Assembly (NCBI RefSeq): GCF_050320075.1
Contig: NZ_CP190018.1
Origin: Escherichia coli
GTDB lineage: Bacteria > Pseudomonadota > Gammaproteobacteria > Enterobacterales > Enterobacteriaceae
Length of the DNA: 64,000 bases
Strand: one strand, 5' to 3'
Position 1 is the first letter of the stretch, and the number at the start of each line of letters is the position of its first letter. Made by a program: the position numbers and the translations under genes. This document shows positions 1 to 51,450 of this stretch, piece after piece. The notes below the pieces were generated by a model. The model saw nothing but the letters and a program-made list of their open reading frames with translations, was not told the origin of the DNA and searched no databases.

Positions 1-8
1 GACAGACG

Positions 9-284
9 CTATCGCACAGGATGGATAAGATAATTCGCCTTTGTCGGAAAAGGGGGCGGAATTTCTTCTGTGAGGTTTAATGGTGGCGCATCTTCTCTCA
101 TTTTTAACAAAATCGCCTGTGATGGCTGAAATTTTGTAGAGTGAGTTGTCGTCATCGCTGACGTTTTTTCCGTCTCTTTATAGCTCGCCTCACTACCACC
201 ACCAGAAATAGAAAATGCAAAAACATTGCACGCCATAATAGAGACCAATAAAAATAAGCTAAAAAGCATTAAGTTTACTTTCAT
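9..284 (-). CDS. ypdI: small putative lipoprotein YpdI (91 aa)
   Basis: Track ORF; hydrophobic N-terminal signal ending in lipobox-like IMAC; divergent from yfdX as in K-12 gene order. Confidence 0.6.
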   Translation of the reverse strand: MKVNLMLFSLFLLVSIMACNVFAFSISGGGSEASYKETEKTSAMTTTHSTKFQPSQAILLKMREDAPPLNLTEEIPPPFPTKANYLIHPVR

Positions 285-426
285 AGAAAGTTATCCTGAA
301 AATGGTTCACTGAAAACCTACGACGTTATTGCTGTATTTACATATAATTAATCAGTATTTACATCGATATAATAAATGACATCTCTTTTTGGTATATAAG
401 AATAGTTCTCTGTGACAGGAAGCATA

Positions 427-444
427 TTCCTACAATTGTAAGAC
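427..444. promoter_or_regulatory. candidate EvgA box upstream of yfdX
   Basis: TTCCTACA-AT-TGTAAGAC, an 8-2-8 near-palindrome matching the EvgA inverted-repeat consensus TTCYTACA-N2-TGTARGAA; a weaker second copy lies near 465-482. Confidence 0.5.
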
Positions 445-579
445 TAAAATACTTCTTGCGATAATAACTACAACTGTAAGATAACCCTTTCAAAATGACC
501 GTTGCTCTCTGATTTCTCATTTCATGCTCACCCAATATGATGGCGGCGTTTTCTAAAACTGTTAAAGAATGAGGTAAGT

Positions 580-1212
580 ATGAAACGTTTAATTATGGCT
601 ACGATGGTCACAGCAATTCTGGCATCTTCAACTGTATGGGCGGCTGATAATGCACCGGTAGCGGCACAACAGCAAACTCAGCAAGTTCAGCAAACCCAGA
701 AAACGGCAGCAGCAGAGCGTATCTCTGAACAAGGTTTATATGCGATGCGTGACGTGCAGGTAGCGCGCTTGGCTCTGTTTCATGGCGATCCGGAAAAGGC
801 AAAAGAACTGACCAATGAAGCTTCAGCTTTGTTGTCAGATGACAGTACCGAATGGGCAAAGTTCGCTAAGCCAGGTAAAAAGACCAATGTCAATGATGAC
901 CAATATATTGTCATTAATGCATCTGTCGGAATTTCTGAGAGTTATGTAGCGACACCCGAAAAAGAAGCCGCGATAAAAATTGCCAACGAAAAAATGGCGA
1001 AAGGGGATAAAAAGGGCGCAATGGAAGAGCTGCGCCTGGCCGGTGTTGGCGTAATGGAAAACCAATATCTGATGCCGCTCAAACAGACTCGTAATGCACT
1101 TGCTGATGCGCAGAAACTGCTTGATAAAAAGCAATACTACGAGGCAAACCTGGCGCTTAAAGGTGCGGAAGATGGAATCATCGTCGATAGCGAAGCACTG
1201 TTTGTGAACTAA
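580..1212 (+). CDS. yfdX: periplasmic protein YfdX (EvgA-regulated, function unclear)
   Basis: Track ORF 210 aa with signal peptide; sequence recognised as YfdX; upstream of frc. Confidence 0.9.
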
Positions 1213-1266
1213 CGCTGACAGGCAGTATATTGAGGTAAAGGATTTAACTCCCTCCAGCCGACAATT

Positions 1267-1303
1267 TTTTATGACCACAATACGACAGGTTGTGGTCATA
1301 AAA
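1267..1303. terminator. hairpin terminator downstream of yfdX
   Basis: Perfect 14-bp inverted repeat TTTTATGACCACAA / TTGTGGTCATAAAA with 9-nt loop, about 55 bp after the yfdX stop, with A/T-rich flanks. Confidence 0.5.
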
Positions 1304-1455
1304 TTATTTGGCGCTCGCGGTTCTATAAACTCGCATTTTATCTTCCTCAAAGTAAACCGCAATAATCCCGTGTCATCACAAATCATTTATTATGTTATGT
1401 TTTATGGTACGCTTTAAAAGGCGTAATCATACCCTTACTTGTAAATCACCGGCGC

Positions 1456-1473
1456 TTCTTACAGTTGTAAGAA
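1456..1473. promoter_or_regulatory. EvgA box upstream of frc
   Basis: TTCTTACA-GT-TGTAAGAA, a perfect 8-2-8 palindrome matching the EvgA consensus, about 250 bp upstream of the frc start. Confidence 0.6.
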
Positions 1474-1724
1474 TAACATCACAAATGTCGCGGCTCTCTC
1501 TGATTACCGCGAACCAATATTTATCATATTCTTCTTTTCGTCCTCACTACTTACCATGCAGAAAGGAATTGGAAGTGGCGATGAAATGATTTTCAGCACT
1601 TGATACAGGAATTTAAAAATATCGAGTGCAGCTACGACGATATTTTGCGGATTATTTATAGAGGGCGTTATGCCTTAAATAAACGCTAAATTAACATATA
1701 TTTAATTAACTAATAGGTATTGCT

Positions 1725-2975
1725 ATGTCAACTCCACTTCAAGGAATTAAAGTTCTCGATTTCACCGGTGTGCAATCTGGCCCATCTTGTACTCAAATGC
1801 TGGCCTGGTTTGGCGCTGACGTCATTAAAATTGAACGTCCCGGCGTTGGTGACGTAACGCGTCACCAGCTGCGAGATATTCCTGATATCGATGCGCTTTA
1901 CTTCACCATGCTTAACAGTAACAAACGTTCTATTGAATTAAATACCAAAACAGCGGAAGGCAAAGAGGTAATGGAAAAGCTGATCCGCGAAGCTGATATC
2001 TTAGTCGAGAACTTTCATCCAGGGGCCATTGATCACATGGGCTTCACCTGGGAGCATATTCAAGAAATCAATCCACGTCTGATTTTTGGTTCGATCAAAG
2101 GGTTTGATGAGTGTTCGCCTTATGTGAATGTAAAAGCCTATGAAAACGTTGCTCAGGCAGCGGGTGGTGCGGCATCCACTACGGGTTTTTGGGACGGTCC
2201 GCCGCTGGTAAGCGCTGCAGCGTTGGGTGACAGCAACACCGGAATGCATTTACTGATCGGTTTACTTGCTGCTTTGCTGCATCGCGAAAAAACGGGGCGT
2301 GGGCAACGAGTCACCATGTCAATGCAGGATGCCGTATTGAACCTTTGCCGCGTGAAATTACGCGACCAGCAGCGTCTCGATAAATTGGGTTATCTGGAAG
2401 AATACCCGCAGTATCCGAATGGCACATTTGGTGATGCAGTTCCCCGCGGAGGTAATGCGGGTGGTGGCGGTCAGCCTGGCTGGATCCTGAAATGTAAAGG
2501 CTGGGAAACCGATCCTAACGCCTATATTTATTTCACTATTCAGGAGCAAAACTGGGAAAACACCTGTAAAGCCATCGGCAAACCAGATTGGATTACCGAT
2601 CCGGCATACAGTACAGCCCATGCCCGACAGCCACATATTTTCGATATTTTTGCTGAAATCGAAAAATACACTGTCACTATTGATAAACATGAAGCGGTGG
2701 CCTATTTGACTCAGTTTGATATTCCTTGTGCACCGGTTTTAAGTATGAAAGAAATTTCACTTGATCCCTCTTTGCGCCAAAGTGGCAGTGTTGTTGAAGT
2801 GGAACAACCGTTGCGTGGAAAATATCTGACAGTTGGTTGTCCAATGAAATTCTCTGCCTTTACGCCGGATATTAAAGCTGCGCCGCTATTAGGTGAACAT
2901 ACCGCTGCTGTATTGCAGGAGCTGGGTTATAGCGACGATGAAATTGCTGCAATGAAGCAAAACCACGCCATCTGA
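1725..2975 (+). CDS. frc: formyl-CoA:oxalate CoA-transferase
   Basis: Track ORF 416 aa; family III CoA-transferase sequence recognised as Frc (YfdW); immediately upstream of oxc. Confidence 0.95.
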
Positions 2976-3028
2976 TATTAACGGGGGCTTCTGGCTCCCA
3001 ATTTATAAAAATTTCGAGGTTATTAATC

Positions 3029-4723
3029 ATGTCAGATCAACTTCAAATGACAGATGGTATGCATATCATCGTTGAAGCATTAAAACAGAATGATATTGAC
3101 ACTATTTATGGTGTTGTAGGTATTCCTGTGACGGATATGGCGCGCCATGCCCAGGCGGAAGGCATTCGTTATATTGGTTTTCGTCATGAGCAGTCGGCAG
3201 GCTATGCCGCTGCGGCAAGCGGTTTTCTTACCCAAAAACCAGGGATCTGCCTGACAGTGTCTGCGCCAGGATTCCTCAATGGTTTGACCGCATTGGCCAA
3301 CGCAACGGTAAATGGTTTTCCGATGATCATGATTAGCGGCTCCAGCGACCGCGCGATCGTCGACCTACAGCAAGGTGATTATGAAGAGCTGGACCAAATG
3401 AATGCGGCAAAACCGTATGCCAAAGCAGCATTTCGCGTTAATCAGCCGCAGGATCTTGGCATTGCATTGGCACGCGCTATCCGGGTCTCAGTATCGGGTC
3501 GCCCTGGCGGAGTTTATCTTGATTTACCAGCAAATGTCCTGGCCGCGACGATGGAAAAAGACGAAGCGTTAACCACGATTGTAAAAGTTGAAAATCCGTC
3601 GCCAGCATTATTGCCATGCCCGAAGTCAGTCACTAGCGCAATTTCGCTTTTAGCAAAAGCTGAACGACCATTAGTTATCCTTGGCAAAGGCGCGGCGTAT
3701 TCACAAGCGGATGAACAGCTTCGTGAATTTATTGAAAGTGCCCAGATTCCATTCCTGCCAATGTCTATGGCGAAAGGGATCCTCGAAGATACACATCCAC
3801 TTTCTGCGGCAACTGCGCGTTCGTTTGCCCTGGCAAATGCTGACGTTGTCATGCTTGTCGGTGCACGACTGAATTGGTTACTGGCACACGGTAAAAAAGG
3901 ATGGGCGGCAGATACACAGTTTATTCAACTGGATATTGAACCGCAGGAAATTGACAGCAACCGCCCCATTGCTGTGCCAGTCGTTGGCGATATTGCATCC
4001 AGTATGCAAGGTATGCTGGCAGAATTGAAACAAAACACATTTACGACTCCACTGGTATGGCGCGATATTTTAAATATCCACAAGCAGCAAAATGCACAAA
4101 AAATGCATGAAAAATTAAGTACAGATACTCAACCATTAAATTACTTTAATGCATTAAGTGCTGTGCGCGATGTATTGCGCGAGAACCAGGATATTTATTT
4201 AGTTAATGAAGGTGCAAATACCCTGGATAATGCACGAAATATTATTGATATGTATAAACCACGTCGCCGTCTGGATTGTGGTACCTGGGGTGTCATGGGC
4301 ATCGGTATGGGCTATGCCATCGGTGCTAGCGTGACCTCTGGTTCTCCGGTTGTCGCCATTGAAGGTGATAGTGCTTTTGGTTTCAGTGGGATGGAGATTG
4401 AAACGATTTGTCGATATAACCTGCCGGTGACGATCGTTATTTTTAATAATGGCGGCATCTACAGAGGAGACGGTGTTGATCTCAGTGGCGCTGGTGCACC
4501 ATCACCAACAGATCTATTGCACCATGCAAGGTATGACAAATTAATGGATGCGTTTCGTGGCGTTGGCTATAACGTCACTACGACAGATGAACTTCGTCAT
4601 GCTTTAACCACCGGTATTCAGTCGCGCAAACCGACCATTATTAATGTGGTCATCGACCCTGCAGCAGGAACTGAAAGTGGCCATATTACCAAACTTAACC
4701 CAAAACAAGTCGCTGGTAATTAA
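3029..4723 (+). CDS. oxc: oxalyl-CoA decarboxylase (ThDP-dependent)
   Basis: Track ORF 564 aa; thiamine-diphosphate enzyme family sequence recognised as Oxc (YfdU). Confidence 0.95.
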
Positions 4724-4791
4724 ATACTGACATCGTCTCCTCTTGCCAACTCATTATCGATGGTGAGGGGACCCTTATCGGAAATACTATT

Positions 4792-5736
4792 ATGCTAACA
4801 TTTTTTATTGGCGATTTATTGCCTATTATCGTAATCATGCTGTTGGGTTATTTTAGCGGCAGACGAGAAACTTTTTCAGAAGATCAAGCCCGGGCATTTA
4901 ATAAACTGGTATTAAACTACGCTCTTCCTGCGGCCCTATTTGTTTCTATTACCCGGGCAAACAGGGAAATGATTTTTGCGGACACTCGCCTGACCCTTGT
5001 ATCACTTGTGGTTATTGTCGGATGTTTCTTTTTCTCCTGGTTTGGTTGCTACAAATTTTTTAAACGTACTCATGCAGAAGCAGCAGTATGTGCATTAATT
5101 GCAGGTTCACCTACCATCGGATTCCTGGGATTTGCAGTTCTCGATCCTATTTATGGCGATTCCGTATCAACAGGTTTAGTTGTAGCAATTATTTCTATTA
5201 TTGTTAACGCAATTACTATTCCTATTGGTCTGTATTTGCTGAATCCTTCCTCAGGAGCGGATGGTAAGAAGAATAGTAATCTGAGCGCATTAATTTCTGC
5301 GGCAAAGGAGCCAGTAGTATGGGCACCTGTTCTGGCAACGATCCTGGTGTTGGTTGGGGTAAAAATTCCGGCAGCATGGGACCCAACCTTTAATCTGATT
5401 GCGAAGGCTAACTCAGGGGTAGCGGTATTCGCTGCGGGGTTGACTCTGGCTGCACATAAATTCGAATTCAGTGCCGAAATTGCTTATAACACCTTCCTGA
5501 AGCTGATTCTGATGCCACTGGCGCTGCTTCTCGTGGGTATGGCATGTCATTTGAACAGCGAACATTTGCAGATGATGGTACTGGCAGGTGCCTTACCGCC
5601 GGCATTCTCCGGAATCATTATTGCCAGCCGGTTTAATGTCTACACCCGCACTGGTACAGCGTCACTGGCTGTGAGCGTACTGGGCTTTGTCGTCACGGCT
5701 CCTTTGTGGATTTATGTCAGTCGACTGGTTTCATAA
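4792..5736 (+). CDS. yfdV: AEC-family membrane transporter YfdV
   Basis: Track ORF 314 aa, polytopic membrane protein; position between oxc and yfdE. Confidence 0.85.
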
Positions 5737-5764
5737 TTAATCATGTTATTGATTTTACATAAAT

Positions 5765-5795
5765 GCCGAAGTGTCTTTTCACCTTCGGCTTTTTT
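5765..5795 (+). terminator. intrinsic-terminator-like hairpin between yfdV and yfdE
   Basis: GCCGAAG-(11 nt loop)-CTTCGGC followed by TTTTTT; it overlaps the GTG that opens the track ORF at 5771. Confidence 0.45.
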
Positions 5796-5809
5796 CAAGG
5801 CATAAGCAA

Positions 5810-6955
5810 ATGACAAATAATGAATGCAAAGGGCCGTTTGAAGGCTTATTAGTTATCGATATGACACATGTCCTTAATGGACCTTTCGGAACTCAACTTC
5901 TTTGTAATATGGGCGCAAGGGTAATTAAAGTTGAGCCGCCGGGTCATGGTGATGATACCCGCACATTTGGTCCCTATGTGGATGGACAGTCACTCTATTA
6001 CAGTTTTATTAATCATGGCAAAGAGAGTGTGGTTCTTGATTTAAAGAATGATCACGATAAAAGTATATTTATAAATATGCTTAAACAAGCTGATGTATTA
6101 GCTGAGAATTTTCGCCCAGGTACAATGGAAAAACTGGGGTTTTCATGGGAAACGCTACAAGAAATCAACCCGCGTCTCATATATGCTTCATCGTCAGGTT
6201 TTGGGCATACCGGCCCGCTAAAAGATGCTCCAGCCTACGATACCATCATTCAGGCAATGAGCGGGATAATGATGGAAACAGGGTACCCTGATGCTCCGCC
6301 AGTGCGCGTGGGTACCTCTCTTGCGGATTTATGTGGCGGTGTCTATTTATTCAGCGGAATAGTGAGTGCACTTTATGGCCGCGAAAAGAGCCAGAGAGGG
6401 GCGCATGTCGATATAGCGATGTTTGATGCCACGCTGAGTTTTCTGGAGCATGGTCTGATGGCATATATTGCGACAGGGAAGTCACCACAACGCCTGGGAA
6501 ATCGCCATCCCTACATGGCACCTTTTGATGTTTTTGATACTCAGGATAAGCCGATTACGATTTGTTGTGGTAATGACAAGCTTTTTTCTGCGTTATGCCA
6601 GGCACTGGAGCTTACGGAACTGGTTAATGATCCCCGATTTAGCAGCAATATTTTACGCGTACAAAACCAGGCTATTCTTAAACAATATATTGAGCGAACG
6701 TTAAAAACGCAGGCAGCTGAAGTTTGGTTAGCCAAAATACATGAAGTTGGTGTGCCCGTCGCGCCGTTATTAAGTGTGGCTGAGGCCATTAATTTGCCAC
6801 AAACTCAGGCGAGAAATATGTTGATTGAAGCCGGGGGAATAATGATGCCAGGTAATCCGATAAAAATCAGCGGCTGCGCGGACCCGCATGTTATGCCGGG
6901 AGCGGCAACGCTCGACCAACATGGGGAACAAATTCGCCAGGAGTTTTCATCATAA
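5810..6955 (+). CDS. yfdE: family III CoA-transferase YfdE (acetyl-CoA:oxalate CoA-transferase)
   Basis: Track ORF 5771..6955; start moved to the in-frame ATG at 5810 (381 aa) because the upstream part lies inside the hairpin/T-run; paralogous to Frc. Confidence 0.85.
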   Translation: MTNNECKGPFEGLLVIDMTHVLNGPFGTQLLCNMGARVIKVEPPGHGDDTRTFGPYVDGQSLYYSFINHGKESVVLDLKNDHDKSIFINMLKQADVLAENFRPGTMEKLGFSWETLQEINPRLIYASSSGFGHTGPLKDAPAYDTIIQAMSGIMMETGYPDAPPVRVGTSLADLCGGVYLFSGIVSALYGREKSQRGAHVDIAMFDATLSFLEHGLMAYIATGKSPQRLGNRHPYMAPFDVFDTQDKPITICCGNDKLFSALCQALELTELVNDPRFSSNILRVQNQAILKQYIERTLKTQAAEVWLAKIHEVGVPVAPLLSVAEAINLPQTQARNMLIEAGGIMMPGNPIKISGCADPHVMPGAATLDQHGEQIRQEFSS

Positions 6956-6977
6956 ATGTAAGATGTGCTGGTAAATA

Positions 6978-7004
6978 GCTCCCACATTTGAATATTGTGG
7001 GAGC
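6978..7004. terminator. hairpin between convergent yfdE and evgS
   Basis: 9-bp stem GCTCCCACA / TGTGGGAGC with 9-nt loop located between the two convergent stop codons. Confidence 0.45.
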
Positions 7005-7010
7005 CGCTAT

Positions 7011-10000
7011 TTAGTCATTTTGTTGACAGAAAACAGCTATCTCCTGGTCCAGCTCTGCAATGTGTTCTTTAACAGAGTTCAGCAACTTAAGAATTTCAGG
7101 CTTACTGTCATCTGAAACAGGTGTTATTTCTAACTGATGGCTAATATTAATCAACTTTTGCAAATTGAGGATGTTAGCCGCACCGTGGATGCGATGAATA
7201 CACTGATGGAAAGTTCTGTTGTCGCCAGCTTCTAGTGCATGAAACGCAGCGGGTAGATCTTTATGCGTTTCATGCTGGAAAGTCATGAGAATCTCCTGCA
7301 TCAGTTGTAGATCGTTCGCCGTATTATTTTTCAGGGCCTCGATATCAAGGTGGCGATACTGAGGTGCAATAGGCGCAACCTGGTGTAACTGACTTAAATG
7401 TGTTTTCAGTACATCCAGGGTCAACGGTTTGAACAAACATAAGTTCATGCCGCAATTTAACCCTTTTTCACGTTCGTTAGCCTGTGCGTTGGCTGTAAGC
7501 CCCCAGATGGGTAAGGAAGAATTTTGCTCACGGAGTTTGCGAGTCAACTCAAAACCATCCATATTCGGCATATTAACGTCAGTAATAAGCAGATCATAAT
7601 GTTGCATACTGACTTTGTGTAGCGCTTGCACACCATCAGTTGCTTCATCAACATCATATCCTAATAGGTTTAGCTGGCGTTTGAGTAATAGCCTGTTGGT
7701 CGGATGATCATCCGCGATTAATATGCTCAACTTTTCAGGGAGTGTCATGGGTTGTTCTGCTTTTGCCTCGACAGCCGCCACTTGTTGGGTAATTTCTACC
7801 GGGATTGTGATCGTAAATGTCGTTCCTATGCCTGGATGACTTTCTAATGACAAATCGCCCTGCATGTTTTTAATTAATTCTTTGCAGATCATTAAGCCTA
7901 AACCAGAACCTGTTTGCTGACGACCTGCACTTGTTTGGCTATAGCGTTTAAACAGTTGTTGTTGTTCTTCCTGCGATAATCCACTTCCAGAATCCATAAT
8001 CGTCATTTTGATAACAGCGTGGTTGTCATCAATGTCACCCAGGGAGGTCGTAATTTTTACTGCCCCCTCGGTAGTAAATTTAAGAGCATTGCTCAGTAAA
8101 TTAGATAAGACCTGCTTAAACGCCTGAGGGTCGATCTTAACCTGGTAATGTTCTGGAAACGTACTGCTGCAACTTAATGCGATGGATTTGCTTGCAGCAA
8201 TCGCACCGAAAGAATGACAAGTGTTCTGGACTAAAGTAGGGATATCGACCCATTGTGGTTGAAGTTGATAGTTACCCGATTCAATTTTGTCGACATCAAG
8301 GATTTCACCAATTAAGCCGAGGAGTGATTGTCCGGTGGCGTAGGCAAGTGAAATCGCCTCCACCCGTTGCTCCTTGCTAAGACCAGAACCCGACAGAAGT
8401 TCCAGGAAGCCCATAATGGAGCTTATTGGTGTTCTTATTTCGTGACTCATTGTTGCCAGAAACTGGCTTTTTGCGACAGTTGCATTGATCGCTTTATTTC
8501 TCTCTACCTCGAGTGCATGAATTAAATCACGCGTCTCGGTAATATCTTGCCAACCACAAATATAAACAGCATGATCGCTGGCTGGCAGATTGCATAATGT
8601 ATGCCAGTGGTTAATGCATCTTTTCTCGATGCCATTATCAATTTCAAATACCTGTGTGTATATTGTTCGATTTTCTTTCGTTTCTGCTGTGACTTCATGC
8701 GCATTAGAAAAAACATCTTTAAAGGGTGAGTCACTGTTTTCTAATGGTAACATTGCATTTTTGTAGTAATCCGCAGTGAAATAATGTTCAAAAGCACTAT
8801 TATGACTAATGACATTACCTTGCCAGTTTACAACATAAGTTGGATTCGGTAAGGAATCCGAGAGTGCTTTTCGGAATGATATTTGGTTTTCTAAATCACC
8901 CTGAATGACTTTACGACGACGAACTGAGCGTAACAGGTAGAATCCCCATAAAAGGCTACTGCCAACTAATAAAACGGATAATGTCGTGACAATATAAAAT
9001 TGCTCGCTATAGAGGTCCCATGTGTCAATGGTCACATTGGGCATTTTAATCCATTTTTCCGTCAGGCGCAGAACTTCGCTTGGGGGAATTGCATTCAGTG
9101 CTTTATTAATAATATCCTTAAGTTCCGGTTCTCCGCGAGGAAAAGCGAACGAAAGCGATGCATTCGGAACGCCGGGAATAAGAAAATGATAAAGTTCATT
9201 AGGATAGTAATGGTCGATCATGTAACGTGAATTTAACTGTGTCGCGACCAGAGCATCAAGTTCGCCTTCCTTGACCTTGTGAAATGCAGCGCTGGCGTTA
9301 TCGACTTTTATCCACTCTACCTCCGGATACATCTCTTTTAATTGCGAATGAAGCTCATAATAATAGGGAATGGCAACTTTCATTCCTTTTTTTAATGTTT
9401 GTTCACTGTCAGGCGCTTTTTGCATGACAAAAACGTAAGGCGTTGTTATGAAGGCTTCAGCAAATAAAACATTATTTTCTCTATCTTCACTATAAATAGC
9501 GGCGGGCAATATATCCCATCCACCGGGGTTAAGCTGTGTCCCCGCATGAATATTGTGTGAAACGGTGATCGGAGAAAAATTTAAACCTGTTTGCAAGGTA
9601 ATAATATTAAGAATATCACCCATCACGCCCCGAACTGAGCCAGTTTCATCTGTCATAGAATAGGGTGGCGAGTAAGGATTTTCCAGCACCTTTAAATCGG
9701 GATGCTGCTTAATCCACTGTTTTTCATGTTCAGTGAGTTCTAATGGTTTGTTCAGAAAGGCCAGGTTTCCTGTATCAAGCCAATTTTGTGATACTTCATA
9801 GCGAACTTCATTTGTTAAAGCATCAACAAACCGATTGAGTACTTCATTAAGAACGACTGAATCTTTTCTGGTTAAGAAAAAGTTATATTGACGCGGCGAG
9901 TTATAATATTTCACTACATTTAAGGAGTGAGTGAAATAGCGGGAAATCATACTGCTGGTAATAATGTTACTACCAATAAAGTAATCATTCTGTCCGGCTG

Positions 10001-10604
10001 AGACGGATGCTAATGCCTGATATAAATTTGTAAAAGAGATAATTGTTGCTTTTGGAAATGATTGATGAATTACCTCATCTGGAGGGTAATTTGCTACCCG
10101 AGCAATATTTACTGGTTTTGATGAGGTAAGCGGTCTCATTGAATCGTGAAGGGTGGTGACCAGCGCCGGAAAGGTAATTATCAGCGGTTTGGTTGCAGCA
10201 ATGTCATCATTAAGAGGCGGCGAAGCAACTAAATGTGATAACACTATATCGACTTCCCCTTCTGTAAGCGCGTCCATTGCTTTTTGATGATCTGCGTATT
10301 CCCGGAGTGTTAATTTGATATTTAACGCTCTTTTTAAAAGATTTAAATAATCAGCATTAATACCACGAACCCGTTGCTGCGAATCGGTATGCAACAAAGT
10401 AGCCGTTTGGGACTTGTGTACTGCAATCACAAGATTTTTTTTGCTCGCTAACCAACGTAATTCCTTGTTGCTCAGACGTAGTGGATCAAGCGTGACACGG
10501 TTGTTACTACTGATGCCACGATATTCGATGTAATCTTCGTCTGCGAAACTTATGGTCGACCAAAGACCACAACAGAGAAGAATAATATAGGGTAAAAACT
10601 TCAT
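7011..10604 (-). CDS. evgS: hybrid sensor histidine kinase EvgS
   Basis: Track ORF 1197 aa with periplasmic domains, HisKA/HATPase, receiver and HPt regions; sequence recognised as EvgS. Confidence 0.95.
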   Translation of the reverse strand: MKFLPYIILLCCGLWSTISFADEDYIEYRGISSNNRVTLDPLRLSNKELRWLASKKNLVIAVHKSQTATLLHTDSQQRVRGINADYLNLLKRALNIKLTLREYADHQKAMDALTEGEVDIVLSHLVASPPLNDDIAATKPLIITFPALVTTLHDSMRPLTSSKPVNIARVANYPPDEVIHQSFPKATIISFTNLYQALASVSAGQNDYFIGSNIITSSMISRYFTHSLNVVKYYNSPRQYNFFLTRKDSVVLNEVLNRFVDALTNEVRYEVSQNWLDTGNLAFLNKPLELTEHEKQWIKQHPDLKVLENPYSPPYSMTDETGSVRGVMGDILNIITLQTGLNFSPITVSHNIHAGTQLNPGGWDILPAAIYSEDRENNVLFAEAFITTPYVFVMQKAPDSEQTLKKGMKVAIPYYYELHSQLKEMYPEVEWIKVDNASAAFHKVKEGELDALVATQLNSRYMIDHYYPNELYHFLIPGVPNASLSFAFPRGEPELKDIINKALNAIPPSEVLRLTEKWIKMPNVTIDTWDLYSEQFYIVTTLSVLLVGSSLLWGFYLLRSVRRRKVIQGDLENQISFRKALSDSLPNPTYVVNWQGNVISHNSAFEHYFTADYYKNAMLPLENSDSPFKDVFSNAHEVTAETKENRTIYTQVFEIDNGIEKRCINHWHTLCNLPASDHAVYICGWQDITETRDLIHALEVERNKAINATVAKSQFLATMSHEIRTPISSIMGFLELLSGSGLSKEQRVEAISLAYATGQSLLGLIGEILDVDKIESGNYQLQPQWVDIPTLVQNTCHSFGAIAASKSIALSCSSTFPEHYQVKIDPQAFKQVLSNLLSNALKFTTEGAVKITTSLGDIDDNHAVIKMTIMDSGSGLSQEEQQQLFKRYSQTSAGRQQTGSGLGLMICKELIKNMQGDLSLESHPGIGTTFTITIPVEITQQVAAVEAKAEQPMTLPEKLSILIADDHPTNRLLLKRQLNLLGYDVDEATDGVQALHKVSMQHYDLLITDVNMPNMDGFELTRKLREQNSSLPIWGLTANAQANEREKGLNCGMNLCLFKPLTLDVLKTHLSQLHQVAPIAPQYRHLDIEALKNNTANDLQLMQEILMTFQHETHKDLPAAFHALEAGDNRTFHQCIHRIHGAANILNLQKLINISHQLEITPVSDDSKPEILKLLNSVKEHIAELDQEIAVFCQQND

Positions 10605-10608
10605 GTGG

Positions 10609-11223
10609 TTAGCCGATTTTGTTACGTTGTGCGAATGTGTAAAGATCCATCAGTGATTTACATTCTAATTTTTCCATCAGGCGACTTTTATAAGTGCTGA
10701 CAGTTTTGTTGCTGATGAACATTTTTTCCGCAATGTCATTATTATCCTTGCCATCAAGAATATATCGCATGACACTAATTTCTTGTTTCGATAAGGAGTC
10801 GAGTTTTTGCTGGTCGGACGTTAAACTTCCAACAAACCGGTTGAGAGAGAAGGGGAAATAGCAGTAGCCATTTTTTGCAGCTTCAATAGCCGCAATGATA
10901 TTGTTCATGCCTTCTTTTTTACTCACGAATCCATTAGCGCCAGCATCAGCACAATGTTTCCCGTAAAAATGGTCATTTTTAGCGGAGACGATAATAATAA
11001 TTCCGCTATATTGGCGCTTCCTCAGCGTTTCTAACACCTGGATACCGTTAACTCCGGGGATATCGACATCAATGATGACGATATCAGGTTTAAGTGTTTC
11101 CACCCGCTGAACGGCACTTCCCCCTTCAGTCAACTCCGCTAAGATTTCAATATCGTTTTTGATCAATAAATTACGAATTGCTGCGATAGCAAGAGGATGG
11201 TCATCAATAATTATTGCGTTCAT
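10609..11223 (-). CDS. evgA: response regulator EvgA (LuxR/NarL family)
   Basis: Track ORF 204 aa, receiver domain plus C-terminal HTH; immediately upstream of evgS. Confidence 0.95.
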   Translation of the reverse strand: MNAIIIDDHPLAIAAIRNLLIKNDIEILAELTEGGSAVQRVETLKPDIVIIDVDIPGVNGIQVLETLRKRQYSGIIIIVSAKNDHFYGKHCADAGANGFVSKKEGMNNIIAAIEAAKNGYCYFPFSLNRFVGSLTSDQQKLDSLSKQEISVMRYILDGKDNNDIAEKMFISNKTVSTYKSRLMEKLECKSLMDLYTFAQRNKIG

Positions 11224-11447
11224 AGATTATTCCCTTTGCAATGAAGCATCTCCCTTCTCCCTGTAGTAATACAGACATAAGGCATCATCTCATTTTCTCA
11301 ATAAAAATAAGAAAATTAGAGCTTCCTTTAAGATAATTCGACAAGTATACCATATAAATAGTCGGCATAAATGAAATGTCAACAATAAAATCAGGGATTG
11401 TACCGATGATTTATAGTTTCACATTAGCACTATAAGTCTTCTCACTA

Positions 11448-11465
11448 ATCCTACATGCGTAAGAA
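11448..11465. promoter_or_regulatory. candidate EvgA box in evgA-emrK divergent region
   Basis: ATCCTACA-TG-CGTAAGAA, 14 of 16 half-site positions matching the EvgA consensus. Confidence 0.5.
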
Positions 11466-11638
11466 TTGTATTGCAAAAGCCACGGTTTAGTCCTCTGTTG
11501 TTTTTTTTGCACCTCATTTAAATTAGGCCTCCAACGTTCCTGGGACAATGTGCAACACATGCACTGTGTTTGATATGAAGAATGAATACTCTTTTCATTC
11601 AATTCATAAATTTCATCTATGCGAAATGAGAGATAATA

Positions 11639-12802
11639 GTGGAACAGATTAATTCAAATAAAAAACATTCTAACAGAAGAAAATACTTTTCTTTATTGGC
11701 GGTAGTTTTATTTATTGCGTTTTCAGGTGCCTATGCCTATTGGTCAATGGAATTAGAAGACATGATTAGTACAGATGATGCCTATGTCACGGGGAATGCA
11801 GATCCAATTTCTGCACAAGTTTCAGGCAGCGTCACTGTCGTTAATCATAAAGATACGAACTACGTTCGACAGGGTGACATTTTAGTCTCACTGGATAAGA
11901 CTGATGCCACTATCGCACTCAATAAAGCTAAAAATAATCTGGCAAATATTGTTCGGCAAACGAATAAACTGTACTTACAGGATAAACAATACAGTGCCGA
12001 AGTCGCTTCAGCACGTATTCAGTATCAACAATCTTTAGAAGATTATAACCGTCGTGTACCTTTAGCGAAGCAGGGGGTTATTTCAAAAGAAACGCTGGAG
12101 CATACCAAAGATACGTTAATAAGTAGCAAAGCGGCATTGAATGCTGCTATTCAGGCTTATAAAGCGAATAAAGCTTTAGTAATGAACACACCATTAAACC
12201 GTCAGCCACAAGTCGTTGAAGCTGCGGATGCAACCAAAGAAGCCTGGTTGGCGCTTAAACGTACGGATATTAAGAGTCCGGTTACCGGCTACATTGCCCA
12301 GCGAAGTGTTCAGGTCGGCGAAACAGTGAGTCCCGGACAATCGTTAATGGCTGTCGTACCGGCACGTCAAATGTGGGTTAATGCTAACTTTAAAGAAACA
12401 CAACTCACGGATGTACGGATTGGTCAATCGGTCAATATTATCAGCGATCTTTATGGTGAAAATGTTGTGTTTCATGGTCGGGTGACAGGGATCAATATGG
12501 GAACCGGCAATGCGTTCTCCTTATTACCTGCACAAAATGCGACAGGGAACTGGATCAAAATCGTTCAGCGTGTACCGGTTGAAGTTTCTCTTGATCCAAA
12601 AGAACTCATGGAACATCCCTTACGTATTGGTTTATCGATGACAGCAACTATTGATACGAAGAACGAAGACATTGCCGAGATGCCTGAGCTGGCTTCAACC
12701 GTGACGTCCATGCCTGCTTATACCAGTAAGGCTTTAGTTATCGATACCAGTCCGATAGAAAAAGAAATTAGCAACATTATTTCGCATAATGGACAACTTT
12801 AA
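11639..12802 (+). CDS. emrK: multidrug efflux periplasmic adaptor EmrK (EmrA paralog)
   Basis: Track ORF 387 aa, membrane-fusion protein family; stop overlaps emrY start (TAATG). Confidence 0.9.
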   Translation: MEQINSNKKHSNRRKYFSLLAVVLFIAFSGAYAYWSMELEDMISTDDAYVTGNADPISAQVSGSVTVVNHKDTNYVRQGDILVSLDKTDATIALNKAKNNLANIVRQTNKLYLQDKQYSAEVASARIQYQQSLEDYNRRVPLAKQGVISKETLEHTKDTLISSKAALNAAIQAYKANKALVMNTPLNRQPQVVEAADATKEAWLALKRTDIKSPVTGYIAQRSVQVGETVSPGQSLMAVVPARQMWVNANFKETQLTDVRIGQSVNIISDLYGENVVFHGRVTGINMGTGNAFSLLPAQNATGNWIKIVQRVPVEVSLDPKELMEHPLRIGLSMTATIDTKNEDIAEMPELASTVTSMPAYTSKALVIDTSPIEKEISNIISHNGQL

Positions 12803-14340
12803 TGGCAATCACTAAATCAACTCCGGCACCATTAACCGGTGGGACGTTATGGTGCGTCACTATTGCATTGTCATTAGCGACGTTTATGCAAATGTTGGAT
12901 TCCACTATTTCTAACGTCGCAATACCGACAATATCTGGCTTTCTGGGAGCATCAACAGACGAAGGCACCTGGGTTATCACTTCGTTTGGCGTAGCAAATG
13001 CCATTGCGATCCCTGTTACCGGCAGGCTGGCACAAAGAATAGGCGAATTAAGATTATTTTTACTTTCAGTCACTTTTTTTTCGCTGTCTTCCTTAATGTG
13101 TAGTTTATCGACCAATCTTGATGTGCTGATATTTTTTAGAGTCGTTCAGGGATTAATGGCGGGGCCGTTAATTCCACTGTCACAGAGTTTATTATTAAGG
13201 AATTATCCACCAGAAAAAAGAACATTTGCTCTGGCATTATGGTCTATGACCGTGATTATCGCGCCGATATGTGGGCCGATATTGGGCGGTTATATTTGTG
13301 ATAACTTTAGCTGGGGTTGGATATTTTTAATCAATGTCCCTATGGGGATTATCGTTCTGACATTATGCTTAACCTTACTTAAAGGAAGAGAAACTGAGAC
13401 TTCACCGGTCAAAATGAATCTACCAGGACTGACCCTGTTAGTGCTCGGTGTTGGTGGCTTGCAGATAATGCTTGATAAAGGGCGCGATCTGGATTGGTTC
13501 AACTCGAGTACAATAATAATACTAACAGTAATGTCAGTTATTTCTCTGATTTCTTTAGTCATTTGGGAGTCGACCTCAGAGAACCCGATTCTTGATCTCA
13601 GTTTGTTTAAGTCCCGTAATTTCACCATTGGTATTGTGAGTATCACATGCGCATATTTATTTTACTCTGGGGCGATAGTCCTTATGCCGCAGTTACTCCA
13701 GGAAACGATGGGGTATAATGCGATATGGGCCGGACTTGCCTATGCGCCCATCGGCATCATGCCGCTATTAATATCACCTTTGATAGGACGTTATGGCAAC
13801 AAAATTGATATGCGGTTGTTGGTGACATTTAGTTTTTTAATGTATGCGGTTTGCTATTACTGGCGTTCTGTGACATTTATGCCAACGATTGATTTTACAG
13901 GCATCATTTTGCCACAGTTTTTTCAGGGATTCGCCGTCGCCTGTTTCTTTTTACCCTTAACAACGATTTCGTTTTCAGGTTTGCCAGATAATAAATTTGC
14001 CAATGCCTCGAGTATGAGTAATTTTTTTCGTACCTTGTCAGGATCAGTTGGTACGTCGTTGACAATGACGCTGTGGGGACGACGCGAATCGTTACACCAT
14101 AGTCAGTTGACAGCAACCATCGATCAATTTAACCCCGTGTTTAATTCATCGTCACAAATTATGGATAAATACTATGGTTCGCTTTCAGGGGTTCTTAATG
14201 AAATTAATAATGAAATAACTCAGCAGTCACTTTCAATTTCTGCAAATGAGATTTTCCGTATGGCGGCTATTGCTTTTATCTTACTTACAGTTTTGGTTTG
14301 GTTTGCGAAACCGCCGTTTACAGCGAAAGGCGTTGGGTGA
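12802..14340 (+). CDS. emrY: MFS multidrug efflux pump EmrY (EmrB paralog)
   Basis: Track ORF 512 aa, 14-TMS-type MFS transporter. Confidence 0.9.
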   Translation: MAITKSTPAPLTGGTLWCVTIALSLATFMQMLDSTISNVAIPTISGFLGASTDEGTWVITSFGVANAIAIPVTGRLAQRIGELRLFLLSVTFFSLSSLMCSLSTNLDVLIFFRVVQGLMAGPLIPLSQSLLLRNYPPEKRTFALALWSMTVIIAPICGPILGGYICDNFSWGWIFLINVPMGIIVLTLCLTLLKGRETETSPVKMNLPGLTLLVLGVGGLQIMLDKGRDLDWFNSSTIIILTVMSVISLISLVIWESTSENPILDLSLFKSRNFTIGIVSITCAYLFYSGAIVLMPQLLQETMGYNAIWAGLAYAPIGIMPLLISPLIGRYGNKIDMRLLVTFSFLMYAVCYYWRSVTFMPTIDFTGIILPQFFQGFAVACFFLPLTTISFSGLPDNKFANASSMSNFFRTLSGSVGTSLTMTLWGRRESLHHSQLTATIDQFNPVFNSSSQIMDKYYGSLSGVLNEINNEITQQSLSISANEIFRMAAIAFILLTVLVWFAKPPFTAKGVG

Positions 14341-14447
14341 TGATAAAAGGAGGGGGTTATAGCAGGTAAGACCAGGGACCTTAAGTCTGCGCCATCGGCA
14401 GCATCGCTCACCCAGGGAAAGGATGGCGATGCTGAATTGAAAATTAA

Positions 14448-15776
14448 TTAGCGGCCTTTTGCCAGATATTGCTCCATCTCTTCTTCCGGCACCATTCCAC
14501 CTCCCGTCGCCCACACCAGATGAGTGGCATTACGCAGTTGTTCTGCGCTGAAACCGTGCATCTGTTGGTAACTTACTGATGCGCACACGCGCTGAGGCCC
14601 GGCCATACCCGCCAGTGCCGAAGGTTCAAGACGAATGCCTTCTTCCTGCGCCAGCCAGCCAAGCATGTCATACATGGTTTGATCGCTAAGGGTATAGAAG
14701 CCATCCAGTAGACGCTCCATTGCCCGCCCGACAAAGCCTGATGCGCGACCAACTGCAAGGCCATCCGCTGCGGTAAGGTTGTCGATACCAATATCCTGAA
14801 CAGAAATCTGATCGTGTAATCCTGTATGGACGCCTAACAGCATACAAGGGGAGTGCGTTGGTTCGGCAAAAAAGCAGTGAACATGATCGCCAAATGCCAG
14901 TTTAAGCCCGAATGCGACGCCACCAGGACCACCGCCAACACCACACGGCAGATAGACAAACAGAGGGTTATCAGCATCGACGATACGACCTTGCTCGGCA
15001 AATTGCGCTTTAAGACGCTGGCCTGCGACGGAATACCCAAGGAACAACGTGCGGGAATTCTCGTCATCAATAAAGAAACAGTTCGGGTCAGACTGCGCTG
15101 CGTTACGTCCTTCCTCGACTGCAACACCATAATCTTGCTCATATTCCACGACCGTAACGCCATGGCTGCGCAGTTTCGCTTTTTTCCATGCCCGGGCATC
15201 AGCAGACATATGTACTGTCACCTTAAAGCCAATGCGGGCGCTCATAATGCCGATTGATAACCCCAGATTTCCGGTTGAGCCCACAGCAATGCTGTATTGG
15301 CTAAAGAACTGTTTAAACTCCGGAGAAAGCAGTTTGCTGTAGTCATCTTCAAGCGTCAGCAACCCCGCTTCCAGAGCCAGTTTTTCTGCATGTGCCAGGA
15401 CTTCATAAATCCCGCCGCGTGCTTTTATGGAGCCGGAAATGGGCAAATGGCTATCTTTTTTCAGTAGCAGTTGCCCGCTGATCGGTTGTTGATATTCCTT
15501 TTCCAGCCGTTTTTGCATAGCCGGAATGGCAACCAGTTCTGATTCAATAATCCCCCCAGTAGCAGCAGTTTCAGGAAATGCTTTTGCCAGATAGGGTGCA
15601 AAACGGGATAAGCGCGCATGGGCGTCCTGAACATCCTGTTCGGTCAGGCCAACATAAGGTAAACCTTCAGCCAATGAGGTCGTGCCAGGATTAAACCAGG
15701 TGGTTTCTTTAAGAGCAACCAGATCCTTTACCAATGGATACTGGGCGATGAGCGAATTCATTTTAGCGTTTTCCAT
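14448..15776 (-). CDS. dsdA: D-serine ammonia-lyase (D-serine dehydratase)
   Basis: Track ORF 442 aa, PLP-dependent fold; recognised as DsdA; appears full length. Confidence 0.95.
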
Positions 15777-15793
15777 AGTACGTCTCTTTGCGC

Positions 15794-16012
15794 TTAGATG
15801 ATAAATGACAGCAGGAATGTGCCCGCCAGAGCGACGACTGAAGCGATAAATGTCGCTGTCGTATAGTATTTAAATGTTTCATTGAGCGTAGCGCCGCAAT
15901 ATTGCTTCGCCAGCCAGAAAAGCGAGTCCGTAACGATCGTGCAGCCAATCGCACCTGAACCGATAGCAATCGCAATAATTTCCGGGCTGATGTCGGGATA
16001 CAGCGGCAGCAC
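15794..16012 (-). pseudogene. dsdX: 3' remnant of dsdX (GntP-family D-serine permease), truncated by csc cluster
   Basis: About 72 codons encoding a GntP-family C-terminus directly upstream of dsdA; similarity ends at about 16012 where csc sequence begins; in-frame stop just upstream. Confidence 0.7.
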
Positions 16013-44394: not shown

Positions 44395-46467
<2,073 letters not shown>

Positions 46468-46476
46468 CTATTAATC

Positions 46477-46511
46477 GTCTGATCGGACTTGTTCGGCGTA
46501 CAAGTGTACGC
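46477..46511. promoter_or_regulatory. fabB promoter FadR site and adjacent FabR palindrome
   Basis: GTCTGATCGGACTTGTTC (FadR-like) followed by GCGTACA-AG-TGTACGC, a 7-2-7 palindrome typical of the FabR operator. Confidence 0.55.
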
Positions 46512-46559
46512 TATTGTGCCATTCGAAACTTACTATAGTGCGACTTACAGAGGTATTGA

Positions 46560-47780
46560 ATGAAACGTGCAGTGATTACTGGCCTGGGCATCGTTTCCAG
46601 CATCGGTAATAACCAGCAGGAAGTCCTGGCATCTCTGCGTGAAGGACGCTCAGGGATCACTTTCTCTCAAGAGCTGAAGGACTCCGGCATGCGTAGCCAC
46701 GTATGGGGCAACGTAAAACTGGATACCACTGGCCTCATTGACCGCAAAGTTGTGCGCTTTATGAGCGACGCATCCATCTATGCATTCCTTTCCATGGAGC
46801 AGGCAATCGCAGATGCTGGCCTCTCCCCGCAAGCTTATCAGAACAACCCACGTGTGGGCCTGATTGCAGGTTCCGGTGGTGGTTCCCCGCGTTTCCAGGT
46901 GTTCGGCGCTGACGCAATGCGCGGCCCGCGCGGCCTGAAAGCGGTTGGCCCGTATGTGGTCACTAAAGCGATGGCATCTGGCGTTTCTGCCTGTCTCGCC
47001 ACGCCGTTTAAAATTCATGGCGTTAACTACTCCATCAGCTCCGCGTGTGCGACTTCCGCACACTGTATCGGTAACGCAGTAGAGCAGATCCAACTGGGCA
47101 AACAGGACATCGTGTTTGCTGGTGGCGGCGAAGAGCTGTGCTGGGAAATGGCTTGCGAATTCGACGCGATGGGTGCGCTGTCTACCAAATACAACGACAC
47201 CCCGGAAAAAGCCTCCCGTACTTACGACGCTCACCGTGACGGTTTCGTTATCGCAGGCGGCGGCGGTATGGTAGTGGTTGAAGAGCTGGAACACGCGCTG
47301 GCGCGTGGTGCTCACATCTATGCTGAAATCGTTGGCTACGGCGCAACGTCTGATGGCGCAGACATGGTTGCTCCGTCTGGCGAAGGCGCAGTGCGTTGCA
47401 TGAAGATGGCGATGCACGGTGTTGATACCCCAATCGACTACCTGAACTCCCACGGTACTTCGACTCCGGTTGGCGACGTGAAAGAGCTGGCGGCTATCCG
47501 TGAAGTGTTCGGCGATAAGAGCCCGGCGATTTCTGCAACCAAAGCAATGACCGGTCACTCTCTGGGCGCTGCTGGCGTACAGGAAGCTATCTACTCTCTG
47601 CTGATGCTGGAACACGGCTTTATCGCCCCGAGCATCAACATTGAAGAGCTGGACGAACAGGCTGCGGGTCTGAACATCGTGACCGAAACGACCGATCGCG
47701 AACTGACCACCGTTATGTCTAACAGCTTCGGCTTCGGCGGCACCAACGCCACGCTGGTAATGCGCAAGCTGAAAGATTAA
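46560..47780 (+). CDS. fabB: 3-oxoacyl-ACP synthase I (KAS I)
   Basis: Track ORF 406 aa; condensing-enzyme fold with active-site Cys (SSACATS). Confidence 0.95.
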
Positions 47781-47789
47781 TTTGGAGTA

Positions 47790-47822
47790 GGTCGGATAAG
47801 ACGCGTCAGCGTCGCATCCGAC
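47790..47822. repeat. REP element after fabB
   Basis: GGTCGGATAAGACGCGTCAGCGTCGCATCCGAC. Confidence 0.55.
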
Positions 47823-47856
47823 ATTACGCGCCAATGCGGCCTCCGGCACTAACGCC

Positions 47857-47882
47857 AAAGGGAACCCGATGGTTCCCTTTTT
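47857..47882 (+). terminator. intrinsic terminator after fabB
   Basis: AAAGGGAACC-CGAT-GGTTCCCTTT followed by TT. Confidence 0.65.
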
Positions 47883-48041
47883 CACATCATTGACAATCGC
47901 CGCCTGTTCCAGGCAAACTTCCCGCTTTGTCGATTTCCTTCTGAAAAGACGTGCGCGTTAAATCCTGCCAACGCACCGTAACCCTGAAACCAGAGAGATG
48001 AGACGGGGAAATTCCTCGCCTTGCGCTGCATTCTGGAGTAA

Positions 48042-50215
<2,174 letters not shown>

Positions 50216-50313
50216 TACGTATCCTTATACCTGAAATCTTCGCAAGTATGCCTGGCCGCGAGATTATGGCACACTTGTCCGGTTAACTCTCGTCTCATAC
50301 AGGTAACACAAAC

Positions 50314-51450
50314 GTGAAAATCCTTGTTGATGAAAATATGCCTTATGCCCGCGACTTATTTAGCCGTTTGGGCGAGGTGACCGCGATTCCCGGGCGTCCA
50401 ATCCCCGTGGCTCAACTGGCAGACGCGGATGCGCTGATGGTGCGTTCGGTCACGAAAGTGAATGAATCTTTGCTGGCAGGAAAACCCATTAAATTTGTTG
50501 GCACTGCCACCGCGGGGACCGACCATGTCGATGAAGCGTGGTTAAAGCAGGCGGGAATTGGTTTTTCCGCGGCACCAGGCTGTAATGCGATTGCGGTGGT
50601 GGAATATGTTTTCTCCTCACTGCTGATGCTTGCCGAACGCGATGGATTTTCACTGCACGACCGTACAGTGGGGATCGTGGGCGTTGGTAACGTTGGTCGC
50701 CGTTTACAGGCGCGACTGGAAGCGTTAGGGATTACAACCTTGCTTTGCGATCCGCCTCGCGCCGACCGTGGGGATGAGGGGGATTTCCGCTCGCTGGATG
50801 AATTAGTTCAGCATGCGGATATTCTGACTTTCCATACGCCACTCTTTAAAGATGGTCCGTACAAAACGCTGCATCTGGCGGATGAAAAACTGATCCGTAG
50901 CCTGAAACCAGGAGCGATTCTGATTAACGCCTGCCGTGGCGCAGTCGTCGATAATACTGCCCTATTGACCTGTCTGAACGAAGGCCAGAAGTTAAGCGTA
51001 GTGCTGGATGTCTGGGAAGGCGAACCGGAACTCAACGTGGAATTGCTGAAAAAAGTGGATATCGGCACGCCGCATATCGCAGGCTATACCCTGGAAGGTA
51101 AAGCACGCGGTACTACGCAAGTGTTTGAAGCCTATAGCAAGTTTATTGGGCATGAACAGCATGTTGCGCTGGATACGTTGCTGCCCGCGCCAGAGTTTGG
51201 CCGCATTACGCTGCATGGTCCGCTCGATCAACCGACGCTGAAAAGGCTGGTGCATTTGGTGTATGATGTGCGCCGCGATGACGCACCGCTGCGTAAAGTC
51301 GCCGGAATACCGGGTGAGTTCGATAAGCTGCGCAAAAACTATCTTGAGCGCCGTGAATGGTCATCTCTGTATGTGATTTGTGATGACGCCAGCGCGGCAT
51401 CATTGCTGTGTAAACTGGGTTTTAACGCCGTTCATCATCCGGCACGTTAA
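50314..51450 (+). CDS. pdxB: erythronate-4-phosphate dehydrogenase
   Basis: Track ORF 378 aa, D-2-hydroxyacid dehydrogenase family ([12 protein letters not shown]). Confidence 0.9.

Follow-up and report, generated by a model that had tools for sequence, protein, structure and literature searches.

The ypdI-emrY block of Escherichia coli: a probably ancient AT-rich island carrying acid-resistance and efflux genes

We analyzed a stretch of 64,000 nucleotides from Escherichia coli (assembly GCF_050320075.1, contig NZ_CP190018.1), referred to below as the window, whose first 14,340 positions carry, in this order, ypdI on the minus strand, yfdX, frc, oxc, yfdV and yfdE on the plus strand, evgS and evgA on the minus strand, and emrK and emrY on the plus strand. 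Our data indicate, with a probability that we put at about 0.8, that this block is an ancient island, made of a nine-gene module (yfdX to emrY) plus ypdI, which entered the chromosome of an E. coli ancestor between yfdY and the dsd/argW region and has since joined the core of the species. The block combines sharp borders with an atypical composition and codon usage, the syntenic site in other genera lacks it, and the module is found patchily and in unrelated contexts; neither mobility scars nor an atypical dinucleotide signature was observed. An earlier inspection of the same DNA by eye had described an older, horizontally acquired module. This original prediction is supported by the composition, by the empty sites, by the presence of the module elsewhere and by its near-universal presence in E. 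coli, but the picture of a passively fading donor signature did not hold.

As a discovery, the block matters little. Its low GC content, predicted foreign origin, control by EvgA, binding by H-NS and near-universal presence are already known, and its genes, their order and the regulatory spacers are the same as those of the E. coli K-12 ypdI-yfdXWUVE-evgSA-emrKY locus (b2367-b2376). Its DNA is 97.6% identical to that of a K-12-like strain carrying KpLE1/CPS-53-type yfd prophage genes. The window strain itself is not K-12, and only the neighbourhood differs from the K-12 locus, with csc genes instead of dsdC/dsdX and no prophage at argW. To the right of the block come dsdA, a truncated dsdX, the csc sucrose genes, argW, yfdC, mlaA, fadL, fadIJ and a fimbrial operon, followed by housekeeping genes from smrB through hisM.

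Base composition and codon usage of the block

The GC content of positions 1-14340 is 0.4266, versus 0.5281 for positions 46000-64000 and 0.4864 for the whole window. As a genomic null we used seven 50-kb segments (350 kb, GC 0.5058) spaced around NZ_CP123240.1, a chromosome whose sequence matches the first 21.6 kb of the window at 100% identity. None of the 1001 sliding background windows of 14,340 bp (mean GC 0.504, standard deviation 0.0225) reaches the low value of the block, the minimum of 0.4335 being found at the waa/rfa lipopolysaccharide-core cluster. At a finer scale, all 14 one-kb tiles of the block fall under the 25th percentile of the background and 7 of the 14 under the 5th. GC content at third codon positions (GC3; GC1 and GC2 for the first two) is 0.36-0.43 in all ten genes, which corresponds to the 3.7th-8th percentile of 299 background open reading frames (ORFs), versus 0.52-0.62 in the 17 genes at 46-64 kb (Mann-Whitney p = 2e-5). 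The long AT-rich intergenic regions noticed by eye were also recovered. They separate ypdI from yfdX (285-579, 295 bp, GC 0.325), yfdX from frc (1213-1724, 512 bp, GC 0.369) and the divergent evgA and emrK (11224-11638, 415 bp, GC 0.337).

Both borders are sharp. On the left, which was read from 10 kb of sequence preceding the window, GC3 is 0.54-0.65 from ptsP to yfdY (0.605 in yfdY itself, at window positions -310 to -68) and then drops to 0.38 in ypdI. At the right border, GC3 climbs again, being 0.415 for emrY and 0.479 for dsdA, with 500-bp tiles passing from a GC content of 0.438 to 0.546; the emrY/dsdA spacer (14341-14447, GC 0.495) marks this border. The limits of the block thus lie at about position 1-9 and at 14340, essentially where the original prediction had placed them, and its by-eye call that the block is richer in AT than the other half of the window proves quantitatively right, with exact coordinates.

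Codon usage leads to the same distinction. When genes are pooled, the block lies at a Karlin codon-bias distance of 0.328 from the genome and the 46-64 kb region at 0.084, and the former exceeds the maximum of 0.289 reached by 97 pooled sets of ten consecutive background ORFs, so that the two regions clearly differ in codon usage as they do in composition. The mean codon adaptation index (CAI) is lower in the block, both with the Sharp-Li weights (0.258 vs 0.353 at 46-64 kb, p = 0.007) and with weights from 29 K-12 ribosomal-protein and elongation-factor genes (0.340 vs 0.429, p = 0.022), the two sets of weights being correlated at r = 0.97. Low CAI is nevertheless not uniform along the block: yfdE, evgS and emrY stand at the 5th, 10th and 1st percentiles, while yfdX and frc reach the 74th and 65th. 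We also tried the codon-position regressions of Lawrence and Ochman; they returned a roughly coherent donor GC content of 40.0, 45.7 and 42.6% from GC1, GC2 and GC3, respectively, but were too noisy for each sub-block, and were not retained.

Chromosomal site and history within E. coli

The site was compared among alaC-anchored loci from 80 species-representative genomes, each with 10 kb on both sides, using tblastn with the proteins of the block and of its flanks. This sample contains no Salmonella or E. fergusonii, and the contig of E. albertii (L012) ends just past alaC. Within it, only E. coli (L011) has the block; of the other 79 loci, all those long enough to be judged lack it after alaC-lpxP. 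Five Enterobacter/Lelliottia genomes display the order alaC-lpxP-argW-yfdC-mlaA-fadL with a gap of about 1-2.5 kb between lpxP and argW; in Citrobacter, alaC-lpxP-yfdY is followed by different genes, and in Klebsiella and others 4-5 kb of unrelated sequence precede argW-yfdC. In the window, the distance from lpxP to argW is 22 kb.

The conserved anchor of this slot is argW, a tRNA-Arg(CCT) gene (21581-21655, minus strand). The block sits on its 3' side, with 7.2 kb of dsd/csc genes in between. In other E. coli strains, integrase islands or prophages adjoin argW itself, likewise on the 3' side. The block therefore occupies a variable tRNA-adjacent slot, farther from argW than younger insertions. 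In this respect it resembles tRNA-associated genomic islands, which likewise lie 3' of the tRNA gene with newer islands nearer to it; unlike them, it has no integrase, att remnant or direct repeat, and the dsd/csc genes intervene before the tRNA. Serial integration at argW was considered as the origin of the block and was left as unproven, since no tRNA remnant beyond chance was found, although the slot itself is clearly variable.

Several details of this slot deserve mention in their own right. The window diverges from NZ_CP123240.1 at position 21604, inside argW, where that strain has an integrase island of ~9 kb which the window lacks. Both strains keep, near 21219-21371, a small fragment of a DUF4942 gene that is likely the remnant of an earlier island. 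Between 14448 and 21139, cscR, cscA, cscK and cscB take the place of dsdC and most of dsdX, of which a remnant persists at 15794-16012; strains with an intact dsdCXA lack the csc genes. The CAI of cscK is very low (1st percentile).

Of 5426 complete E. coli genomes, 5384 contain at least 80% of the block, at a single place, a near-universal presence that agrees with PMC5706723. The block differs between lineages by 0.6-2.65% and the left flank by 1.3-3.1%, so that the divergence of the block is core-like. Taken together with the lack of any att remnant, border repeat or mobility gene, this distribution argues that the acquisition predates the diversification of E. coli.

We then asked how the block evolves within the species. 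Synonymous changes at third positions were polarised by parsimony in the block and in 22 left-flank genes, using five genomes from three lineages; derived states comprised singletons and one shallow clade, and the stem probably holding the root was excluded. The block, with a GC3 of about 0.4, accumulated 98 AT->GC and 147 GC->AT changes, and the flank 139 and 277. The implied equilibrium GC3 is 0.285 for the block (95% interval 0.235-0.339) and 0.403 for the flank (0.354-0.451). Equal rates in the two regions can be rejected (z = -3.15, p = 0.0016), also when the test is confined to four-fold sites (p = 0.0055), AT->GC changes representing 40% of those observed in the block versus 53% expected under the per-site rates of the flank. 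No net AT->GC flux toward the composition of the host, as foreseen by the amelioration model of Lawrence and Ochman, was seen in the block in these polymorphism-level data from five genomes, where slightly deleterious GC->AT changes are over-represented among young polymorphisms, an effect for which the flank serves as control, and where recombination blurs parsimony.

The block is therefore not drifting toward the GC content of its host within E. coli, and its substitution regime is more AT-biased than that of the flank. Consequently, its low GC content is unusable as a clock, and a part of it may be maintained in place. An old island that does not ameliorate is a caution against dating transfers by GC content alone. 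We found no mention of this absence of amelioration in the literature searched; it is a modest result that needs broader sampling.

A part of the block also travels separately. The segment corresponding to window positions 6951-11556 (evgS-evgA) is present without the rest of the block, at about 97.4% identity, on about 24 genuine plasmids of E. coli with sizes of 58-122 kb. In NZ_AP027874.1 (L108, 5248-11344) this segment is bracketed by copies of the insertion sequence (IS) IS1, and it looks like an IS1 composite capture of the chromosomal evgAS genes. Four PLSDB records containing the whole block (three of 4.8-4.9 Mb and one of 1.4 Mb) are evidently chromosomes or chromosome fragments mislabelled as plasmids, and those of 4-5 Mb were ignored.

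The module, its control and its origin

Relatives of EvgS are sparse. After the E. coli cluster (98% identity, 33,752 members) come relatives at 81%, at 64% and then at 58% or less. The gene order emrYK-evgAS-yfdE-yfdV-oxc-frc-yfdX is intact in Yersinia and in a Rahnella-like lineage and partial at two further loci (L094 and L095), and the sites are unrelated to one another. The hosts were identified through exact matches to the flanking proteins and to the EvgS clusters. In Yersinia (L091, EvgS 81%), the module lies between a GGDEF/DUF3302 region and arsRBC-lysS; the hosts at this level of identity are Yersinia frederiksenii, Y. canariae, Y. alsatica and Y. vastinensis. In Rahnella/Ewingella-like hosts (L092 and L093, EvgS 58%), smpB, a D5-type primase and slp stand on one side and hdeD-hdeA on the other. 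L094 (EvgS 53%) has the module adjoining hdeD-hdeA-copA, and L095 (EvgS 64%) is a short contig with part of it. Further EvgS relatives occur in Winslowiella toletana and Klebsiella sp. RIT-PI-d (57%) and in Enterobacter cancerogenus (55%). The whole module, and not evgAS alone, is thus the transferable unit common to a Yersinia subclade and other Enterobacterales; the literature searched makes no mention of this sharing, in different contexts, of a nine-gene unit together with its EvgA boxes, a modest result that also calls for broader sampling.

Two of these loci call for a remark. The gene smpB usually neighbours the tmRNA gene, a common target of islands. At L092 (1289-5485 and 19361-20308) the module stands beside smpB, then a D5-type primase and slp, with hdeD-hdeA on the opposite side, an arrangement that constitutes a composite acid-resistance island in a classic integration hotspot. 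At L094, frc, oxc and yfdE persist only as fragments (13761-15792), with evgAS, emrKY and yfdX intact, and yfdE is frameshifted in E. coli O157:H7 ATCC 43890 (L099, 20814-21955); from these two cases, the oxalate genes seem to be the most dispensable part of the module.

The module proteins of E. coli and of Yersinia, which has the closest copy, are 81-97% identical in amino acids. For YpdA/YpdB, the two-component system of the flank, identity is 87-94% within the Enterobacteriaceae but 76-80% when E. coli is compared with other families. Although this comparison is rough, the higher identity of the module points to a transfer after the families had split. Identity at four-fold sites was also tried as an intergeneric clock and discarded, being saturated at 40-60% in every comparison. 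The Yersinia copy is AT-rich as well (GC3 0.361 vs 0.464 in its flanks), whereas copies with an EvgS identity of 53-64% have a host-like GC3 of 0.53-0.62. The module is therefore not intrinsically AT-rich, and low GC is a trait common to the E. coli and Yersinia branch.

The EvgA boxes follow the module. Searching for TTCYTACANNTGTARGAA, the 18-bp inverted-repeat EvgA-box pattern ascribed to Masuda and Church 2003, we found four matches with at most 3 mismatches in the 64 kb, where 0.67 would be expected; none of 100 shuffles reaches four, and the 350-kb background holds three. All four lie in the three long spacers of the block and none elsewhere in the window: at 427-444 (1 mismatch) and 465-482 (3 mismatches) upstream of yfdX, at 1456-1473 (perfect) upstream of frc, and at 11448-11465 (2 mismatches) in the evgA/emrK control region. 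A separate search for inverted repeats independently detected the palindrome at 425-446, in the ypdI-yfdX spacer. The corresponding Yersinia spacers also contain EvgA boxes (emrK/evgA and frc/yfdX, 1 mismatch each), as does the emrK/evgA spacer of the Rahnella-like host (1 mismatch). EvgA is described as an activator of yfdX, yfdWUVE and emrKY (PMC3720670), reportedly also by Kato in 2000. In PMC3720670, the inverted repeats bound by EvgA are placed upstream of both yfdX and yfdW (= frc), which supports the location of the boxes in the long intergenic regions that the by-eye inspection had pointed out. EvgA-dependent transcription is reported in PMC3720670, which itself cites Masuda and Church 2002/2003. 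The yfdX-frc spacer also contains, 55 bp past the stop of yfdX, a perfect 14-nt inverted repeat (TTTTATGACCACAA ... TTGTGGTCATAAAA, 1267-1303). This terminator-like hairpin fits separate EvgA-dependent promoters for yfdX and frc.

Control by H-NS, which had been deemed probable, agrees with published maps. The emrKY genes are reportedly derepressed in hns mutants, in work ascribed to Nishino and Yamaguchi and dated 2004. In the window, 100-bp tiles with a GC content below 0.35 make up 9.1% of the block, versus 3.5% of the background and 0% at 46-64 kb, and an H-NS motif occurs at 0.63 per kb versus 0.35 per kb, a weak test; these proxies agree only weakly with H-NS binding. Competitive gel shifts indicate that H-NS preferentially binds an evgA promoter fragment (PMC2984483). 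The ChAP-seq tables of Higashi et al. 2016 (PMC4720273) list evgA (HTG code 'H/L/N') and frc ('H/l/n') as H-NS-bound in S2 Table and the emrK-evgA spacer as bound in S3 Table, whereas ddg (lpxP), yfdZ (alaC), ypdA and ypdC are unbound and coded 'x'. The HTG column draws on Lawrence-Ochman 1998, Nakamura 2004 and HGT-DB (refs 40-42 of that paper), and the reading of its upper and lower case is our own. Section 10 of the same paper proposes an ancient transfer for such H-NS-bound genes, in a genome-wide treatment that does not consider the block as a unit. The idea behind the original prediction had therefore been published before.

On this basis, a mechanism can be proposed. H-NS would coat and damp the AT-rich DNA of the block; EvgS would sense mild acid and phosphorylate EvgA, which would then bind its boxes and activate yfdX, the frc operon, emrKY and its own operon against H-NS silencing. 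The AT-richness would persist through the block's own AT-biased substitution regime, rather than simply as a slowly fading donor signature, and a plausible source of this regime would be that selection on codon usage is weak where genes are poorly expressed and bound by H-NS. A bolder version of this hypothesis, to which we grant somewhat less than an even chance, is that the nine-gene unit is a self-regulating "plug-in" cassette for acid, oxalate and efflux functions which moved intact with its EvgA boxes between families of Enterobacterales, that the E. coli and Yersinia copies derive from a shared low-GC version, and that AT-richness is actively maintained by an H-NS-linked regime.

Several observations weigh against an ancient island. 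No integrase, IS or other mobility gene is annotated in the block, no convincing direct or inverted repeats that would be transposition scars flank its borders, and a search for argW remnants in the 31.5 kb left of argW returned only chance 8-9-mers and one 13-mer that lies within yfdV but in the wrong orientation. With a delta* of 43.5 (26.9 +/- 12.3 in the background, 11% of background windows being equally deviant), the composition-normalised dinucleotide signature is unexceptional and was rejected as evidence of transfer; it suggests that the donor had a signature like that of the Enterobacterales rather than coming from a distant phylum. A donor lineage with a GC content of about 40-43% was not found. 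The CAI of yfdX and frc lies above the genomic median. The AT-biased regime implies that low GC could partly arise in place, which makes composition alone weaker as evidence of transfer. Finally, the occupancy by EvgA and by H-NS is taken from the literature on other strains.

These points invite the alternative that the region is native and vertically inherited, that it became AT-rich in place, its poorly expressed, H-NS-bound genes being under weak selection for GC-ending codons and subject to the universal GC->AT mutation bias, and that other genera lost it. The more AT-biased synonymous spectrum of the block, with no amelioration, its ordinary dinucleotide signature and the host-like GC3 of related modules in other hosts would all suit such a history. 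We nonetheless regard it as unlikely, because the block is missing from all the other alaC-anchored loci that can be judged, the context of the module differs in every other host, EvgS relatives have a patchy distribution, the copies of E. coli and Yersinia resemble each other more than the flanking two-component system does between families, and composition steps sharply at both borders.

One could also imagine that the yfdX-yfdE operons, evgAS and emrKY were acquired independently and came to lie side by side by chance. Pairs resembling evgAS do stand alone, beside conjugation genes (L096) or near hdeA in Klebsiella (L097), evgAS alone was captured by IS1 on the plasmids described above, and GC1 and GC2 vary among the sub-blocks. 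However, two or more named hosts keep the gene order and orientation, and a further two do so in part, over EvgS identities from 81% to 53%, GC3 is uniform across the three sub-blocks (0.41, 0.388 and 0.393), and EvgA boxes link all three transcription units, so that we hold this assembly by chance to be even less probable than a native origin. As for a recent and still mobile island, it could be suspected from the variable slot near argW, where other strains carry integrase islands or prophages, and from the IS1-flanked plasmid segments with the evgAS part. It is very improbable and effectively refuted by the single chromosomal place of the block in about 99% of complete E. coli genomes; the core-like divergence between phylogroups and the lack of mobility genes or att sites are also opposed to it. 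An ancient island, acquired before E. coli diversified, thus remains our preferred reading.

Such an island can be compared with known systems. The acid fitness island (slp to gadA, including hdeABD and gadE) is, like the block, AT-rich and H-NS-repressed, and responds to the EvgA-YdeO-GadE cascade (PMC2984483), but in E. coli it has another chromosomal location and other genes. In the Rahnella-like host and at L094, the evgAS module lies next to hdeD-hdeA, and in the former it also adjoins slp. EvgAS itself is homologous to BvgAS of Bordetella and KvgAS/KvhAS of Klebsiella, which likewise associate a hybrid kinase with a NarL-type regulator. The EvgS relatives of Klebsiella are 43-54% identical to EvgS, one of them being plasmid-borne, and in K. 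pneumoniae kvhAS clusters with yfdX and hdeDB (PMC6394985). In the loci that we read, the relatives at 54% and 43% are not linked to frc-oxc or emrKY, and their regulons differ.

Gene content and other features of the window

The leftmost gene of the block, ypdI (9-284, minus strand), is annotated as encoding a small lipoprotein and belongs to the block by composition (GC3 0.38, 4th percentile). No ypdI-sized gene was called beside the module at L091, L092 or L094, and for this reason we count ypdI outside the transferable module. The YpdI protein of another E. coli genome (L011, from 13326) is only 71% identical, its neighbours being 96-99% identical; this corresponds either to a divergent allele or to a local replacement at the left edge of the island.

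On the plus strand, yfdX (580-1212, GC3 0.427) encodes a periplasmic protein of the YfdX family. It is followed on the same strand by frc (yfdW, 1725-2975), oxc (yfdU, 3029-4723), yfdV (4792-5736) and yfdE (5810-6955), with a GC3 of 0.40-0.43, which are the oxalate/CoA-transferase acid-tolerance genes (PMC3720670). The minus strand then carries evgS (7011-10604, GC3 0.382), annotated as a hybrid sensor kinase and supported by its Pfam domains and homologues, and the annotated response-regulator gene evgA (10609-11223, GC 0.40). The block ends with emrK (11639-12802) and emrY (12802-14340), the adaptor and permease of an MFS efflux system, on the plus strand with a GC3 of 0.363 and 0.415, respectively. 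An Rfam scan of positions 1-22000 for RNA elements in the long spacers matched the tRNA only.

The block is not the sole AT-rich spot of the window. Between mlaA and fadL, a hypothetical gene of 423 amino acids (23894-25165, minus strand, GC 0.324, GC3 0.267) is the most AT-rich gene of the window. Other E. coli strains have yfdF (1059 bp) in this slot, which is therefore another small site of variation. Between sixA and the start of the fimbrial genes, a spacer of 662 bp (31851-32512) has a GC content of 0.292, the lowest of all spacers in the window, and is probably the control region of the yfc-type chaperone-usher operon.

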